Shown: positions 25,585 to 52,844 of the stretch, piece by piece
Layout: every line of letters begins with the position of its first letter
Position numbering within the stretch: the stretch's first letter is position 1
Origin: Escherichia coli
GTDB lineage: Bacteria > Pseudomonadota > Gammaproteobacteria > Enterobacterales > Enterobacteriaceae
Strand: one strand, 5' to 3'
Assembly: GCF_003334785.1 (NCBI RefSeq)
Contig: NZ_QOWV01000013.1
DNA length: 64,000 nucleotides
Translations under genes and position numbers: made by a program
The notes under the pieces: generated by a model
Database searches by the model: none
The model's input: the letters and a program-made list of their open reading frames with translations, nothing else
Told to the model about the DNA's origin: nothing

Positions 25585-25690
25585 GCCGGATGCGGCGCGA
25601 ACGCCTTATCCGGCCTACAAAAGTTTGCAAATTCAATAAATTGCAGAATTCATGTAGGCCTGATAAGCGAAGCGCATCAGGCATTTTTGC
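25585..25690. repeat. BIME (two inverted REP units)
   Basis: gccggatgcggcgcgaacgccttatccggcctac ... gtaggcctgataagcgaagcgcatcaggca; antisense track ORF 25502..25699 with ...[12 protein letters not shown]... is a REP artefact. Confidence 0.8.
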
Positions 25691-30664: not shown

Positions 30665-30750
30665 AGGCAGGATAAGGCGTTTACGCCGCATCCGGCATTT
30701 GAGCAGGATGCCTGATGCGACGCTGATAGCGTCTTATCAGGCCTACACTC
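30665..30750. repeat. BIME (two inverted REP units)
   Basis: ggataaggcgtttacgccgcatccggca ... gcctgatgcgacgctgatagcgtcttatcaggcctac. Confidence 0.8.
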
Positions 30751-39534: not shown

Positions 39535-39765
39535 TGCCGGATGCGGCGCGAGCGCCTTATCCGGCCTACGGGTCGGCAACAGTTGTAGGCCTGATAAGAC
39601 GCGACAGCGTCGCATCAGGCATTGATTGCCGGATGCGGCACAAGTGCCTTATCCGGCCTACAGGTCGGCAATAGTTGTAGGCCTGATAAGACGCGACAGC
39701 GTCGCATCAGGCATTGATTGCCGGATGCGGCGCGAGCGCCTTATCCGGCCTACGGGTCGTGCATC
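39535..39765. repeat. tandem BIME cluster (about five REP palindromes in alternating orientation; about 95-bp unit repeated about 2.5 times)
   Basis: Repeated gccggatgcggcgcgagcgccttatccggcctac / gtaggcctgataagacgcgacagcgtcgcatcaggca units between rhaA and rhaD. Confidence 0.85.
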
Positions 39766-46011: not shown

Positions 46012-47067
46012 TTAACGCAGGCTATTATAGTCATCAACCATTTCGTTGTACTCGCGTAATGCTCTCGGGAAAGAGTCTTCGACCATCCAGCTTGAGTTTG
46101 CGTCCTGAAGTTGCTCTTTATCCCAGTCAGAGTACGGGACTTTATCTCTGATGCGGCGAACGTATTTTTTAGCCTCGAGTTGATACTGGCCTGCCGAATT
46201 AATAAACGAGAAATTCATGCCGCCTTTATCCGCTTCTTTGGCCTGCGCCACTAGCGTTTCCAGTTCAGACACTTTCTTCATTGCCGCTTCTGCATCAAAC
46301 TTATCTTGCGATATCAGGTTATTAATTTGTTTCGCTGAAATCATGACTGCCAGAGAGTAGTAGTGGAATGTTTTCCCTTCTCTTTCTTCAATATTTTTCA
46401 GTTCCGCAAGCTGACGCTTATCATTAATTTCCTGAATCGCCGCATGATAAGATTCGGCTACAGGTTCAAAGGCTTCCAGATTTTTTAAGAATGTCTGGTG
46501 CAGCGTTTTCCCTTTCGCAAACGCATCGTCTTTATAATTTTCCTGGGTGTAATATTTATCCATTTCGTTAATGGTATTACCCAACGCCACGGCAGCATCG
46601 ATATAACTCACCGCCACGCCATCAATTGGTTGCAGCGCAGGCGTTAACGCCACAGCACTTTTTACGCCTTTTTCACACTCAGCGAGGTTGGATTCACTAA
46701 TGCCGTAGATGCCATAAACAGTACGCTCTTCACCGGTAGGCCCCTGTTTAAAATCTTTCAGCCAGTCAGCATAACGCGCCAGACTGCGCTGTACCGGGAT
46801 CTGTAACTTGTTGTAGCACTTGATATAGACATCCATTTTTTCGTCGAAAACCGCTTGTTCATCGACCACCGGTTGCGCAGGTGTTTCAGGTTTAGCTTCT
46901 GCTTTTGCAACGGGAGCTTCAGTAGGTTTCGCTTCAGGAGCTGGTGCGGCAGGTTGACTATTGGCAGGCGGGAGCGTTTCTGTTTCGGCTTTTTTATCAT
47001 CACAACCCGTCAGACCGAGGGACATGATGGCGACTATAATAGCGGAAGATAATAAATTCCTTTTCAT
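46012..47067 (-). CDS. yiiG: YiiG, DUF3829-family lipoprotein
   Basis: ORF track 351 aa; lipobox MKRNLLSSAIIVAIMSLGLTGC; Ala/Pro/Glu-rich linker. Confidence 0.85.
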   Translation of the reverse strand: MKRNLLSSAIIVAIMSLGLTGCDDKKAETETLPPANSQPAAPAPEAKPTEAPVAKAEAKPETPAQPVVDEQAVFDEKMDVYIKCYNKLQIPVQRSLARYADWLKDFKQGPTGEERTVYGIYGISESNLAECEKGVKSAVALTPALQPIDGVAVSYIDAAVALGNTINEMDKYYTQENYKDDAFAKGKTLHQTFLKNLEAFEPVAESYHAAIQEINDKRQLAELKNIEEREGKTFHYYSLAVMISAKQINNLISQDKFDAEAAMKKVSELETLVAQAKEADKGGMNFSFINSAGQYQLEAKKYVRRIRDKVPYSDWDKEQLQDANSSWMVEDSFPRALREYNEMVDDYNSLR

Positions 47068-47179
47068 TTAATTGCCTTATAAATATATAGATAAGAGAGT
47101 GAACATAATAAATGAAAAAAGAAAACGCCACTACACGCATTTTGTTTATAAATAAAATAATAAAATTCACGAAATGAAT

Positions 47180-47212
47180 AAGTCCTGCAATTTAATATAT
47201 TTCGCAGGACTT
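47180..47212 (-). terminator. stem-loop just downstream of fdhD stop (probable terminator)
   Basis: aagtcctgc ... gcaggactt 9-bp inverted repeat adjacent to the fdhD stop, AT-rich flanks. Confidence 0.45.
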
Positions 47213-47219
47213 ATTTTAA

Positions 47220-48053
47220 TTAATTGCTCAAACGCTGCGGATGGGTATAAACCGTTGCCCGACCCGGTTTACAAAAACCTACCAGTGTCAGATTACAGCG
47301 CTCAGCCACTTCTACAGCAAGCGTGGTCGCGGCAGACACCGCAAACAAAATCTCTACGCCGCACATCGCCGACTTTTGCACCATTTCATAACTGGCACGA
47401 CTGGAAACCAGTACCGCACCTTGCTGCCAGCTTTCCCCTTCTTGTGACCGGCGGCCTAACAGTTTGTCCAGCGCCACATGGCGACCCACGTCTTCATGCC
47501 CGCCGACCAGTTCGCCAGATGGCAACATCCAGGCAGCGGCGTGAGTACAACCAGTCAGTTGCCCCACTGGCTGAAAATCGTTGAGATGACGTAATGCATC
47601 ATCCAGTTTGTTGAGATCAAACGTCTGGGTGAACGGTAGCGGCTGCACCGGTTTTCCGATGTCATTAAGTTGCTCCACGCCGCATACGCCACAGCCCGTA
47701 CGTCCCGCCAGCGCCCGGCGGCGCTCCTTCAACCCCATAAAGCGGCGGCTGGAAAGCTCAATTTGTACTTCAAGACCATTACAGGAAGGAACGACATCCA
47801 TGCCGAAGATATCGCGCGGACTTTCGATAATCCCCTCGGAAAGCGAAAAACCGAGCGCAAAGTACTCAAGGTCTTTGGGCGACGCCATCATCACCACATG
47901 CGAAATGCCGTTGTAGACCAGCGCAACGGGAACTTCTTCCGCGACCTCATCTAACCGTGGGTGTTGTAAATCATCACGCCGCCATAACTCAATTTGACGA
48001 ACACCTGTGATATTTGTCACATTTTCGATTTCTTTTCGCTGTGTTTTTTTCAC
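47220..48053 (-). CDS. fdhD: formate dehydrogenase sulfurtransferase FdhD
   Basis: ORF track 277 aa [49 protein letters not shown]... Confidence 0.93.
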
Positions 48054-48246
48054 TTTCTCTTAACCAGATAAGAACACACACACCAACATTATGGTATTCT
48101 GTTACAAACCCTTCCTGGATGGAGGGAAATTGAGCCAATTCTGGACCTTTGCGGCCCCTTCCGCAAAGAAAAATAACTCCCACTCCCTGCACACGCAGCA
48201 AGCGAATGTAAATGGGACGTGACAATGTCGAAACAAGGAGCAATCC

Positions 48247-51200
48247 ATGCAGGTCAGCAGAAGGCAGTTCTTTAAGATCTGCGCTGGCGGTATGGCAGGC
48301 ACCACGGCAGCGGCACTGGGTTTTGCACCCAGCGTAGCACTCGCGGAAACCCGGCAGTATAAACTGCTGCGCACCCGCGAAACCCGTAATACCTGCACCT
48401 ATTGTTCCGTAGGCTGTGGGCTGTTGATGTACAGCCTCGGTGACGGAGCAAAAAACGCCAAAGCATCTATCTTCCATATCGAAGGCGATCCGGATCACCC
48501 GGTCAACCGCGGTGCACTTTGTCCGAAAGGCGCTGGCCTGGTGGATTTCATCCACTCCGAAAGCCGTCTGAAGTTTCCGGAATACCGTGCGCCAGGTTCT
48601 GATAAATGGCAGCAAATCAGTTGGGAAGAGGCGTTTGATCGCATCGCCAAACTGATGAAAGAAGACCGCGATGCTAACTACATTGCGCAAAACGCCGAAG
48701 GCGTGACTGTTAACCGCTGGCTCTCCACCGGGATGCTGTGTGCTTCCGCGTCGAGTAACGAAACCGGCTATTTAACGCAAAAATTCTCCCGCGCGCTGGG
48801 TATGCTCGCGGTCGACAACCAGGCGCGTGTCTGACACGGACCAACGGTAGCAAGTCTTGCTCCAACATTTGGTCGCGGTGCGATGACCAACCACTGGGTC
48901 GACATCAAGAACGCCAACCTCGTCGTGGTGATGGGCGGTAACGCCGCTGAAGCTCACCCGGTCGGGTTCCGCTGGGCGATGGAAGCCAAAATTCACAACG
49001 GCGCGAAGCTGATTGTGATCGATCCTCGCTTTACGCGTACGGCGGCGGTAGCTGACTACTATGCCCCTATTCGTTCCGGTACTGACATTGCTTTCCTGTC
49101 AGGCGTATTGCTGTACCTGCTGAACAATGAAAAATTCAACCGCGAATACACCGAAGCCTATACCAACGCCAGCCTGATCGTGCGTGAGGATTACGGCTTT
49201 GAAGATGGCCTGTTCACCGGCTACGACGCGGAAAAACGCAAGTACGATAAATCCTCCTGGACTTATGAACTGGACGAAAACGGCTTCGCCAAACGCGATA
49301 CCACGCTGCAACATCCGCGCTGCGTGTGGAACTTGCTGAAACAGCACGTTTCCCGCTACACGCCAGATGTGGTTGAAAACATCTGTGGTACGCCAAAAGA
49401 CGCGTTCCTGAAAGTCTGCGAATACATCGCAGAAACCAGTGCTCACGATAAAACTGCCTCGTTCCTGTATGCCCTCGGCTGGACGCAACACTCCGTTGGT
49501 GCGCAAAACATTCGTACGATGGCGATGATCCAGCTGCTGCTCGGCAATATGGGGATGGCAGGCGGCGGCGTTAACGCCCTGCGCGGTCACTCCAATATTC
49601 AGGGGCTGACGGACCTGGGGCTGCTGTCGCAGAGCCTGCCAGGTTACATGACGCTGCCAAGCGAGAAGCAGACCGATCTGCAAACCTACCTTACCGCCAA
49701 CACGCCAAAACCGCTGCTGGAAGGCCAGGTAAACTACTGGGGCAACTACCCGAAATTCTTCGTCTCTATGATGAAGGCCTTCTTTGGTGATAAAGCGACG
49801 GCGGAAAATAGCTGGGGCTTTGACTGGTTGCCGAAGTGGGATAAAGGCTACGACGTCCTGCAATACTTCGAGATGATGAAAGAGGGCAAGGTCAATGGCT
49901 ATATCTGCCAGGGCTTTAACCCTGTTGCCTCATTCCCGAACAAAAACAAAGTGATCGGTTGTCTGTCGAAACTGAAGTTCCTCGTCACCATCGACCCACT
50001 GAACACTGAAACCTCTAACTTCTGGCAGAACCACGGTGAGCTGAACGAAGTTGACTCGTCGAAGATCCAGACCGAAGTGTTCCGTCTGCCATCGACCTGC
50101 TTCGCGGAAGAGAACGGTTCTATCGTTAACTCAGGTCGCTGGTTACAGTGGCACTGGAAAGGTGCGGACGCCCCGGGGATTGCGCTGACTGACGGCGAGA
50201 TCCTCTCCGGTATCTTCCTGCGCTTGCGCAAGATGTATGCCGAACAGGGTGGCGCGAACCCGGACCAGGTGCTGAACATGACATGGAACTACGCCATTCC
50301 GCATGAGCCATCTTCAGAAGAAGTGGCGATGGAGAGCAACGGTAAGGCGCTGGCCGATATTACCGATCCGGCAACCGGTGCGGTTATCGTCAAGAAAGGC
50401 CAACAACTTAGTTCGTTCGCCCAATTGCGCGATGACGGTACAACCTCCTGTGGCTGCTGGATTTTCGCCGGTAGCTGGACGCCGGAAGGCAACCAGATGG
50501 CACGCCGTGATAACGCCGATCCGTCTGGCCTCGGTAACACGCTGGGCTGGGCATGGGCATGGCCGCTTAACCGCCGCATTCTGTATAACCGCGCCTCCGC
50601 AGATCCGCAGGGTAACCCGTGGGATCCGAAGCGTCAGTTGCTGAAATGGGACGGCACTAAGTGGACCGGCTGGGATATTCCGGACTACAGCGCAGCGCCT
50701 CCGGGTAGCGGCGTCGGGCCGTTTATCATGCAGCAGGAAGGCATGGGGCGTCTGTTTGCCCTCGATAAGATGGCGGAAGGTCCGTTCCCGGAACACTACG
50801 AGCCGTTTGAAACGCCGCTGGGAACTAACCCGCTGCATCCAAACGTTATCTCGAACCCGGCTGCACGTATCTTTAAAGACGACGCCGAAGCATTGGGTAA
50901 AGCCGATAAGTTCCCGTATGTCGGAACCACCTATCGTCTGACCGAGCACTTCCACTACTGGACCAAACACGCGCTGTTGAACGCGATTTTGCAGCCAGAG
51001 CAGTTTGTGGAAATCGGGGAGTCGCTGGCGAATAAACTTGGCATTGCCCAGGGCGATACCGTGAAAGTCTCCTCCAACCGTGGCTATATCAAAGCCAAAG
51101 CGGTGGTGACCAAACGTATTCGCACGCTGAAAGCGAACGGCAAAGATATCGATACCATCGGTATTCCGATTCACTGGGGCTATGAAGGCGTAGCTAAAAA

Positions 51201-51297
51201 AGGCTTTATTGCCAATACTTTAACGCCATTCGTTGGTGATGCGAACACGCAGACGCCGGAGTTTAAGTCCTTCCTTGTGAATGTGGAAAAGGTGTAA
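48247..51297 (+). CDS. fdoG: formate dehydrogenase-O catalytic subunit (selenoprotein, 1016 codons; in-frame UGA at 48832-48834 decoded as selenocysteine; Tat signal)
   Basis: Track ORFs 48247..48834 (195 aa, twin-arginine signal MQVSRRQFFKICAGG) and 48883..51297 (804 aa) are in the same frame, separated only by one TGA and 16 sense codons. Confidence 0.93.
48835..48880 (+). promoter_or_regulatory. putative SECIS stem-loop directing selenocysteine insertion at the fdoG UGA
   Basis: Position immediately 3' of the in-frame UGA; inverted repeat gcaagtcttgc in the first 30 nt; not folded computationally. Confidence 0.45.
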
Positions 51298-51309
51298 CGG
51301 AGACGACAT

Positions 51310-52212
51310 ATGGCTTATCAATCTCAAGATATCATTCGTCGTTCCGCGACTAACGGTCTGACCCCCGCGCCTCAGGCGCGGGACTTCCAGGAAGAAGTGG
51401 CGAAACTCATCGACGTTACCACCTGTATCGGCTGTAAAGCCTGTCAGGTGGCGTGTTCAGAGTGGAACGACATTCGCGATACCGTCGGCAATAACATTGG
51501 GGTGTACGACAACCCCAATGATTTAAGCGCCAAATCGTGGACGGTAATGCGCTTCTCGGAAGTGGAGCAGAACGACAAACTGGAATGGCTGATCCGCAAA
51601 GACGGCTGTATGCACTGTTCCGATCCAGGCTGCCTGAAAGCGTGCCCGGCGGAAGGTGCAATTATTCAGTATGCCAACGGTATCGTCGACTTCCAGTCCG
51701 AGCAGTGCATTGGCTGCGGTTATTGCATTGCGGGCTGTCCGTTCGACATTCCGCGCCTCAACCCGGAAGACAACCGCGTCTACAAATGTACGCTGTGCGT
51801 TGACCGCGTGGTGGTTGGGCAAGAACCAGCCTGCGTGAAGACCTGCCCAACGGGCGCGATTCACTTCGGTACGAAAGAGTCGATGAAAACGCTGGCGAGC
51901 GAGCGCGTTGCTGAGCTGAAAACCCGCGGTTACGACAATGCGGGTCTGTACGATCCGGCAGGCGTCGGTGGTACACACGTCATGTACGTGCTGCACCATG
52001 CTGACAAGCCAAATCTGTATCATGGCTTGCCGGAGAACCCGGAAATCAGCGAAACCGTGAAATTCTGGAAAGGCATCTGGAAACCGCTCGCGGCTGTTGG
52101 CTTTGCGGCTACCTTTGCGGCCAGTATCTTCCACTACGTGGGTGTCGGTCCGAACCGTGCGGATGAGGAAGAGAATAATCTGCACGAAGAGAAAGACGAG
52201 GAGCGCAAATGA
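51310..52212 (+). CDS. fdoH: formate dehydrogenase-O iron-sulfur subunit
   Basis: ORF track 300 aa; multiple CxxCxxCxxxCP ferredoxin motifs. Confidence 0.95.
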
Positions 52213-52844
52213 AACGACGTGACACCATCGTGCGCTACACCGCGCCGGAACGTATCAACCACTGGATCACCGCCTTCTGCTTCATCCTGGCGGCGGTGAG
52301 CGGGCTGGGCTTTTTGTTCCCGTCCTTCAACTGGTTGATGCAAATCATGGGCACACCGCAGCTGGCGCGAATTCTGCACCCGTTTGTCGGCGTGGTTATG
52401 TTTGCCTCGTTCATCATCATGTTTTTCCGTTACTGGCATCACAACCTAATCAATCGGGATGATATCTTTTGGGCGAAGAATATTCGTAAGATCGTCGTCA
52501 ACGAGGAAGTAGGTGACACCGGGCGTTATAACTTCGGTCAGAAATGCGTTTTCTGGGCGGCGATTATTTTCCTGGTTCTGCTGCTGGTGAGCGGCGTGAT
52601 TATCTGGCGTCCTTATTTTGCGCCTGCTTTCTCAATCCCGGTGATCCGATTCGCGTTAATGCTGCATTCATTTGCCGCAGTGGCGTTAATTGTGGTTATC
52701 ATGGTGCATATCTACGCCGCCCTTTGGGTGAAAGGCACGATTACCGCCATGGTGGAAGGATGGGTTACCAGCGCCTGGGCGAAGAAACATCACCCGCGCT
52801 GGTACCGTGAGGTCCGCAAGACAACGGAAAAGAAAGCTGAATGA
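52209..52844 (+). CDS. fdoI: formate dehydrogenase-O cytochrome b556 subunit
   Basis: ORF track 211 aa [40 protein letters not shown]...; 4-bp overlap with fdoH. Confidence 0.95.

Follow-up and report, generated by a model that had tools for sequence, protein, structure and literature searches.

Single-gene model of fdoG in Escherichia coli with an in-frame UGA codon read as selenocysteine

Positions 48247–51297 of the 64-kb stretch of Escherichia coli DNA analysed here (the window) almost certainly hold one gene, E. coli K-12 fdoG, in which the UGA at codon 196 is recoded as selenocysteine by way of a SECIS element and SelB. The gene encodes the Tat-exported catalytic subunit of formate dehydrogenase-O, with molybdenum (bis-MGD) and [4Fe-4S] as cofactors. 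In the proposed mechanism, a SECIS hairpin is predicted to form in the mRNA immediately after the UGA, the upper stem-loop of which lies at 48846–48863; this stem-loop, with its bulged U17 and loop G23/U24, would bind SelB carrying GTP and Sec-tRNA(Sec), as the literature suggests. SelB would then place the Sec-tRNA(Sec) in the ribosomal A site, where it competes with release factor 2 for the UGA, and the resulting Sec196 would act as the active-site ligand of molybdenum, by analogy with FdnG. The sequence anatomy, the SECIS match, the conservation and covariation in the paralog and across species, and the homology of the Sec position were computed in this work, while SelB binding, the actual insertion of Sec and the Mo ligation were taken from the literature or inferred.

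Sec196 of FdoG and its SECIS element are already known and belong to textbook biology, so that the result contains nothing new for biology. The correct recognition of a recoded stop codon from the raw sequence alone is useful as a positive control.

Gene model, protein domains and locus

The mechanical ORF list gives two ORFs on the plus strand, 48247..48834 (195 aa) and 48883..51297 (804 aa), both starting with ATG. The 48 nt between them, 48835–48882, correspond to 16 sense codons (HGPTVASLAPTFGRGA). Translation of 48247–51297 gave 1017 codons (3051 nt), ending with TAA, in which the TGA of codon 196 (48832..48834, plus strand) was the only internal in-frame stop; this codon is aligned with X196 (SeCys) of the FdnG structure 1kqf. 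The first-pass annotation had stated that the two ORFs share one frame and are split by this TGA and 16 sense codons, which was confirmed by the translation. Its gene model, one CDS of 1016 codons, agrees with the joined frame, which contains no other internal stop before the terminal TAA, and with RefSeq, where one CDS is annotated at exactly 48247–51297. The product, the catalytic (alpha) subunit of formate dehydrogenase-O, has 1016 residues with Sec counted. The warning that a naive annotation would split the gene holds for a purely mechanical ORF caller; however, the reference annotation already gives a single CDS. Because mechanical ORF tracks split selenoprotein genes, pipelines that depend on them require a check for SECIS elements or recoding.

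The N-terminal 33 residues (48247..48345, plus strand; translation MQVSRRQFFKICAGGMAGTTAAALGFAPSVALA) form a Tat signal peptide with the motif S-R-R-Q-F-F-K at 48256–48276, and the first 27 residues are near-identical to those of FdnG. Cleavage of the signal in FdoG presumably occurs after ALA, as predicted from what is known of FdnG. Three Pfam domains follow on the same strand: the molybdopterin oxidoreductase Fe4S4 domain at residues 44–103 (48376..48555; PF04879, E = 5.4e-16), the molybdopterin oxidoreductase domain at residues 107–589 (48565..50013; PF00384, E = 1e-28), which spans the TGA, and the Molydopterin dinucleotide-binding domain at residues 894–1009 (50926..51273; PF01568, E = 9.8e-16). 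The first ORF thus contains the Tat signal, the Fe4S4 domain and the beginning of the molybdopterin domain (approximately 90 residues), which places the TGA inside the catalytic domain. The Tat signal (MQVSRRQFFK) that had been ascribed to the first ORF was found there, but the simple division into a signal-bearing first ORF and a catalytic second ORF does not stand, as the Fe4S4 domain and the start of the molybdopterin domain also lie in the first. The full product matched TIGR01553 with 1574.6 bits (cut-off 814.2) over profile positions 1–1009 of 1009, and the joined FdoG was aligned end to end with FdnG (PDB 1kqf, chain A) with 1902 bits. A chance pairing of two ORFs is excluded, since both the Pfam molybdopterin domain and the 1kqf alignment cross the TGA.

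The 3051 nt of fdoG are 100% identical to b3894 of E. coli K-12 MG1655 (NC_000913.3), and the surrounding 8.5 kb, which comprises fdhD, fdoGHI and fdhE, is an exact match to MG1655, whose genome also carries selA and selB. Among complete genomes of E. coli, 5426 of 5426 contain the segment. On the minus strand and divergent from fdoG, the gene of the accessory sulfurtransferase, fdhD, lies at 47220..48053 (TIGR00129, 340 bits; RefSeq agrees). Downstream, the plus strand carries fdoH, encoding the beta (4x[4Fe-4S]) subunit, at 51310..52212 (TIGR01582, 478.7 bits against a cut-off of 334.7; fdoH in RefSeq), fdoI, encoding the cytochrome b556 gamma subunit, at 52209..52844, and fdhE, encoding a formate dehydrogenase accessory protein, at 52841..53770 (NF002925, 604 bits; RefSeq agrees). 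The fdoI product scored 453.3 bits with the FdoI model NF007924 (cut-off 341) and 243.6 bits with the FdnI model NF007558, which is under the cut-off of 339. The gamma subunit of the FdoI type indicates that the operon is that of Fdh-O rather than Fdh-N. The gene is fdoG and not fdnG, given its identity to b3894, its neighbours fdhD, fdoH, fdoI and fdhE, and this FdoI-type subunit.

In many PGAP-annotated RefSeq genomes of E. coli, the locus is labelled "fdnG: formate dehydrogenase-N subunit alpha" despite the adjoining fdoH, which is a naming matter only. Seven fdoG-like places were found on plasmid records. The one examined, pZYS9073-A, was rejected as a plasmid copy; it is a linear record of 298 kb with chromosomal synteny (narZ-narU...yddG-fdnGHI-yddM-adhP-maeA) and is most likely a mislabelled chromosomal contig.

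SECIS element downstream of the UGA

The first-pass annotation had proposed to look for a SelB-binding SECIS hairpin 3' of the UGA. A SECIS element there is supported by a curated covariance model that matches above its gathering score: the 59 nt beginning at 48829 cover positions 1–59, the whole length, of Rfam RF01989 (SECIS_3), with 84.3 bits against a gathering score of 63 and E = 1.9e-19. The element (48829..48887, plus strand) lies within the CDS and starts one codon ahead of the TGA. It was the only SECIS match when the whole 64-kb window was scanned at the gathering thresholds. As positive controls, fdnG gave the same SECIS_3 match and fdhF was matched by SECIS_2 with 87.1 bits.

The upper stem-loop, which corresponds to the minimal SelB-binding hairpin, extends over 48846..48863 on the plus strand (GGU-AGCAA-GUC-UUGCU-CC), with the predicted fold ((.(((((...))))))). 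Counted from the U of the UGA, the bulged U17 is located at 48848, the loop G23 at 48854 and the loop U24 at 48855; these three nucleotides are described as determinants of SelB recognition, together with a spacing of about 11 nt between UGA and hairpin (PMC8659212). The spacing of 11 nt between the UGA and the upper hairpin matches the published value.

Folding of about 50 nt 3' of the UGA had been suggested as a check. The hairpin was indeed predicted, but its energy alone was not significant: the 49-nt segment has a minimum free energy (MFE) of −14.6 kcal/mol with z = −1.45, and 19 of 200 shuffled sequences were as stable. For the 18-nt upper hairpin, z was −2.06 (9 of 200 shuffles), and the positive control, fdhF, reached z = −0.70. 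MFE folding is insensitive for bacterial SECIS elements, as even the fdhF prototype gives only this value; folding energy was thus discarded as a discriminating test, and the z = −1.45 of fdoG does not count against a SECIS element. The case for the SECIS element rests on the covariance-model match and on comparative evidence, not on the folding energy, and for bacterial SECIS elements in general the decisive evidence comes from covariance models and from covariation at synonymous sites.

The register of the lower stem is ambiguous: the MFE structure departs from the Rfam consensus, and two pairs of the E. coli sequence are non-canonical when the Rfam register is applied. Across species, the lower helix is weaker than the upper one, with 83–87% of its pairs formed among the matches listed (82.9% and 86.8% when the MFE and Rfam registers were counted separately), so that neither register is clearly preferable; strong covariation was found in neither.

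Conservation, covariation and alternative readings

Sites in other species were collected with the pattern DNQARV-TG[A/C/T]-HG; the motif is required, which places distant or Cys-containing homologues outside the sample. Among the matches listed, TGA was found at 118 of the 119 pattern sites and at 118 of 118 true homologous sites, in other Proteobacteria and beyond. The remaining site, a TGC in Legionella, was set aside as an unrelated chance match, with a stop 13 codons on and no FDH-like peptide. Orthologues with a Cys codon (TGC or TGT), as a natural control, were absent among the listed matches of this degenerate pattern.

In 75 distinct homologous sequences among the matches listed, the upper helix was 100% paired. 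Double, compensatory changes were observed at three of its seven pairs (AU/CG/GC, GC/AU/GU and GC/UG), largely at synonymous third positions. The observed covariation score was reached by 0 of 500 shuffles, a control that overstates the significance because the sequences are related by descent, and slid registers were paired at only 27–57%. U17, G23 and U24 (alignment columns T20, G26 and T27) were invariant in the 75 distinct sequences.

Within E. coli, a stretch of 100 nt that includes the element is at least 99% identical in 5425 of 5434 records; the 3.4-kb segment 48000–51400 reaches at least 99% in only 3246 records. For the 115 loci listed, the fraction of identical codons was 0.555 in the SECIS codons against 0.425 and 0.499 in the flanks. 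Such a modest codon conservation is expected, since the helix is kept through compensatory change and not through invariance. The identical 59-mer occurs in at least 23 of the sampled loci whose flanks are complete; these represent many genera of enterobacteria and include both loci where a genome carries two. As these loci were chosen for identity, the 100% conservation of their SECIS element is circular and becomes informative only against the flanks, where 0.57–0.61 of the synonymous sites (~57–61%) are conserved. The invariance of the element greatly exceeds what the minimal 17-nt SelB-binding hairpin demands, and might be ascribed, with considerable doubt, to an extra, so far undescribed constraint in Enterobacterales, in which the lower stem or 3' flank makes a second contact with the ribosome or SelB, or to recurrent gene conversion between fdoG and fdnG confined to the SECIS element.

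If readthrough of the UGA involved no selenocysteine but, for instance, near-cognate insertion of Trp or Cys, the downstream conservation would be attributed only to protein constraint or to gene conversion between fdoG and fdnG. This reading is very improbable. Termination at UGA is weak when the next base is C, as it is here, and the peptide HGPTVASLAPTFGRGAMTN is itself 96% identical in amino acids over the sampled loci; however, protein constraint does not predict the third-position synonymous compensatory changes by which the upper helix is kept fully paired. Gene conversion between the paralogs could give the 71-nt tract at 48829–48899, which is the longest exact run shared by fdoG and fdnG, the next longest being 36 nt. 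The tract is, however, short and centred on the SECIS element, and synonymous differences between the genes reappear 1 codon before the UGA and 22 codons after it. Readthrough of this kind is also opposed by published experiments: the peptide VU196HGPTVASLAPTFGR was found by mass spectrometry (MS), whereas no Cys was ever detected at this position (PMC3636253), and mutation of selC abolishes the activity of Fdh-N and Fdh-O (PMC3160892).

That the TGA is a true stop in a pseudogene or split gene, yielding an N-terminal fragment of ~21 kDa and at most a separately initiated C-terminal one of 804 aa, deserves virtually no credence: mechanical ORF calling yields exactly such a split and UGA normally acts as a stop under table 11, but the TGA is kept at all the homologous sites given above and, at 95% identity or more, in all 5426 E. 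coli genomes, a universal distribution not expected of a disabling mutation, a single Pfam domain (PF00384) crosses the codon, which lies opposite the structurally resolved SeCys196 of FdnG, the curated SECIS model matches at this codon, and the Sec196 peptide has been seen by MS (PMC3636253). Full-length FdoG of ~110 kDa with selenium, which speaks against a true stop, has likewise been reported in the cited literature.

The recoding of UGA 196 as selenocysteine is therefore retained. The identification of the TGA as the known selenocysteine codon of formate dehydrogenase-O, already made in the first-pass annotation, is borne out by the SECIS model match, the alignment with FdnG and FdhF, and the published MS peptide. 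Mass spectrometry had been proposed there as a check, and the literature supplies the Sec196 peptide, in a sequence common to FdoG and FdnG (PMC3636253); since trypsin releases the same peptide from either protein, the published observation is unable to tell FdoG from FdnG. According to the same paper, E. coli has no selenoproteins other than its three formate dehydrogenases (PMC3636253).

Comparison with fdnG and fdhF

Apart from the identical K-12 gene b3894 itself, the closest known systems are fdnG and fdhF of E. coli. The first, fdnG of formate dehydrogenase-N, is a paralog at another chromosomal locus. Fdh-O is constitutive and is also produced aerobically, whereas fdnG is induced by nitrate (PMC3160892). 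The two proteins are 77% identical, UGA stands at codon 196 in both genes, the 59 nt of the SECIS element are identical, and the Tat motif and the operon layout of G, H and I subunits are common to both. The DNA identity is 74.9%, with the same codon used at 58% of the shared residues. Alignment with fdnG, one of the checks proposed earlier, gave the same residues around the TGA as around Sec in FdnG, with codon 196 opposite SeCys196 of 1kqf in ARV-X-HGPTVASL. In contrast to fdoG, the fdn locus is not flanked by fdhD or fdhE.

The SECIS element at Sec140 of fdhF (Rfam SECIS_2) is the experimentally dissected prototype of bacterial SECIS elements. The proposed alignment with fdhF also agreed with the Sec assignment: the TGA of fdoG lies opposite Sec140 of FdhF, and the flanks are homologous (ARV-U-HGP), the wider peptide context ARV-U-HGP(T/S)VA(S/G)L being common to both proteins. 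As in fdoG, the upper hairpin of fdhF begins at nt 15, counted from the UGA, and has a bulged U17 and loop G23/U24. However, the two elements belong to different models: with SECIS_2 (gathering 70), fdoG reached only 28.1 bits, and with SECIS_3 (gathering 63), fdhF reached 35.8 bits. The loop of fdoG consists of 3 nt (GUC) and is closed by an A-U pair, whereas that of fdhF consists of 4 nt (GGUC). In their N-terminal region, FdoG and FdhF share only 36% identity, and FdhF, with 715 aa, is cytoplasmic and lacks the Tat signal found in FdoG.

The fdoG reading frame and the identity of its locus

The mechanical ORF list contains two plus-strand ORFs in this region, 48247..48834 (195 aa) and 48883..51297 (804 aa), which the first-pass annotation had described as one frame split by a TGA and 16 sense codons. 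Translation bears this out in every detail. The TGA at 48832-48834 (+), codon 196 of fdoG, is the sole internal stop in 48247-51297; the 48 nt between it and the second ORF encode HGPTVASLAPTFGRGA, and the frame ends with TAA, giving a product of 1016 residues with codon 196 counted. The single 1016-codon CDS that had been proposed agrees with NC_000913.3, in which fdoG (b3894) is one CDS of 3051 nt with the same ends.

The joined product, with codon 196 represented by Cys, was aligned full length to PDB 1kqf FdnG at 1902 bits, where codon 196 falls opposite X196, the SeCys given as an unknown residue in that chain, and it scored 1574.6 bits on TIGR01553 (cut-off 814). Pfam places the Fe4S4 domain at residues 44-103, the Molybdopterin domain at 107-589, and the MGD-binding domain at 894-1009. 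The twin-arginine motif (MQVSRRQFFK) lies at the N-terminus in the first ORF, as had been noted; however, the catalytic body is not confined to the second ORF, because the Molybdopterin domain spans the TGA, which is thus within the catalytic domain. The alignment around the selenocysteine codon that had been suggested as a check gave flanks identical between FdoG and FdnG (LAVDNQARV-U-HGPTVASLAPTFGRGAMTN) and clearly homologous in FdhF (VDCCARV-U-HGPSVAGLHQSVGNGAMSN), and the only internal TGA is codon 196 in FdnG and codon 140 in FdhF.

Several E. coli chromosomes, K-12 MG1655 among them, match the segment 48000-51400 at 100% identity, and all 5426 complete E. coli genomes contain it at a coverage of at least 80%. 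Positions 46569-55069 are an exact reverse-complement match of NC_000913.3 4079000-4087500, where fdhD lies on the divergent strand and fdoH, fdoI, and fdhE follow fdoG. NCBIfam confirms every neighbour, and the gamma subunit is of the FdoI type (NF007924, 453 bits, above cut-off; the FdnI model gave 243.6 bits, below its cut-off of 339). These neighbours and the FdoI-type gamma subunit identify the locus as Fdh-O, not Fdh-N. The Sec196 feature of fdoG is not new, and the reference annotation already includes it.

PGAP-annotated RefSeq E. coli genomes name the locus 'fdnG: formate dehydrogenase-N subunit alpha' despite the adjoining fdoH, fdoI, and fdhE, unlike the curated NC_000913.3 record, which uses fdoG. 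The equivalog TIGR01553 does not tell the paralogs apart, so that gene-name searches for fdoG miss the locus in all 22 PGAP-annotated genome rows listed. The linear 298-kb record NZ_CP159530.1 ('plasmid pZYS9073-A') carries narZ, narU, yddG, fdnGHI, yddM, adhP, and maeA in chromosomal order at 1-12095; it is probably a chromosomal contig wrongly labelled as a plasmid, which would account for a part of the 7 'plasmid' places with fdoG-like DNA.

The SECIS element and other Rfam matches

The whole-window scan at gathering thresholds gave a single SECIS match, SECIS_3 (RF01989) at 48829-48887 (+), which covers the full model at 84.3 bits (gathering 63, E = 1.9e-19) with the UGA at model positions 4-6. 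This match at the codon, with the SeCys of 1kqf opposite, upholds the earlier identification of the TGA as the known selenocysteine codon of formate dehydrogenase-O. As controls, fdnG scored equally on an identical 59 nt, and fdhF matched SECIS_2 at 87.1 bits.

The predicted fold contains the upper hairpin GG-U-AGCAA-GUC-UUGCU-CC at 48846-48863 (nt 15-32 from the U of UGA), with U17 bulged and G23 and U24 in the loop. RNA folding, also suggested earlier as a check, gave -14.6 kcal/mol for the 49-nt segment, a value that alone does not stand out (z = -1.45; 19 of 200 shuffles as stable). The fdhF prototype was no better (z = -0.70), which indicates that the folding test is weak for such elements.

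A sub-threshold match to RF02778 ('FdoG-1 5' UTR thermometer'; 36.5 bits, gathering 50, E = 1.3e-07) at 48040-48276 (+) covers the whole model, from the intergenic space between fdhD and fdoG through fdoG codon 10. It aligns well over the Shine-Dalgarno/start region and the MQVSRRQFFK codons, and poorly in the 5' part, where several pairs are non-canonical and 53 nt are inserted. Intergenic matches to naRNA4 (CssrE) lie at 30666-30743 (+), 39588-39658 (-), 39680-39750 (-), and, more weakly, 53916-54055, and those to ES036 (CssrF) at 6226-6267 (-), 25620-25661 (+), and 53973-54015 (-); one such group is directly downstream of fdhE, and matches of this type likewise lie downstream of fdnI in the fdn locus. 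The ClpQY (hslVU) promoter element at 11911-11968 (+; 63.6 bits) and the gammaproteobacterial L31 (rpmE) ribosomal-protein leader at 7247-7299 (-; 60.1 bits), both above gathering, are what an E. coli chromosome usually carries.

Nucleotide constraint around codon 196

Between fdoG and fdnG, protein identity is 77% and DNA identity 74.9%, and only 58% of the degenerate codons for common residues are the same. Their longest exact run is nevertheless 71 nt (48829-48899, from one codon before the UGA), compared with 36 nt for the second longest. Synonymous differences reappear one codon before the UGA on one side and at codon 218 on the other, so the identical tract is short, with the SECIS at its centre. 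Over the 100 nt around the SECIS, 5425 of 5434 E. coli records are at least 99% identical, against only 3246 for the 3.4-kb segment 48000-51400.

One genome per species was scanned with GAYAAYCARGCNCGNGTN-TGH-CAYGG, which fixes DNQARV, then TGA, TGC, or TGT, then HG, and leaves the hairpin free; at least 120 stretches matched. Among the matches listed, TGA occupied 118 of 119 extractable sites, and these 118 gave 75 distinct 59-mers in a gap-free alignment, from Enterobacterales, Pseudomonas, Burkholderiales, Rhodobacterales, Rhizobiales, Geobacterales, Terriglobia, and others. The one TGC site, in Legionella, was an unrelated chance match soon followed by a stop.

In these 75 sequences every cell of the upper helix is paired (100%), the bulged U, loop G, and loop U are invariant, and double changes occur at three of the seven pairs: AU 48, CG 23, and GC 4 at the first; GC 63, AU 7, and GU 5 at the second; GC 70 and UG 5 at the third. 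Many are coupled synonymous third-position swaps, such as GTA...GCT to GTG...GCC and GCA...CTT to GCC...CTG. None of 500 shuffles matched the observed covariation score or paired-cell fraction, and sliding the 3' partner by 1-3 columns lowered pairing from 90-93% to 27-57%. These results are limited by a sample that was selected for a conserved peptide motif, by the common descent of the sequences, and by a protein segment that is itself 96% conserved. Support is weaker for the lower helix, which is 83-87% paired and whose register could be that of the minimum-free-energy fold or that of the Rfam consensus.

The exact 59-nt SECIS (48829-48887) is unchanged in at least 23 loci with full flanks among the matches listed, in Enterobacter, Citrobacter, Klebsiella, Yersinia, Photorhabdus, Providencia, Superficieibacter, and E. 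albertii, several genomes having two such loci; flanking synonymous sites there are only about 57-61% conserved. That 59-71 nt are invariant over enterobacterial genera and both paralogs exceeds the need of the minimal 17-nt SelB hairpin.

Decoding of UGA196

Readthrough independent of selenocysteine, or conservation from protein constraint or gene conversion alone, fits poorly with a helix kept by compensatory synonymous changes, with the absence of Fdh-N/Fdh-O activity in a selC mutant (PMC3160892), and with mass spectrometry, in which VU196HGPTVASLAPTFGR was detected and Cys at 196 was never found (PMC3636253), although this peptide is common to FdoG and FdnG and cannot tell them apart. Three observations exclude a genuine stop codon or a pseudogene: the TGA, universally conserved among the homologous sites listed, the single domain across it, and the SECIS match at the codon. 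The observation and interpretation of a selenoprotein gene split at an in-frame UGA were both correct.

From established knowledge and the cited papers, SelB with GTP and Sec-tRNA(Sec) would bind the upper hairpin and read UGA196 as selenocysteine. Both selA and selB occur in the same genome. Judging from the FdnG structure, Sec196 would be the Mo ligand. SelB binding is reported to involve a hairpin 11 nt from the UGA, in which U17, G23, and U24 are essential (PMC8659212, citing Liu et al. 1998 and Fourmy et al. 2002), and the fdoG hairpin shares this geometry and these determinants.
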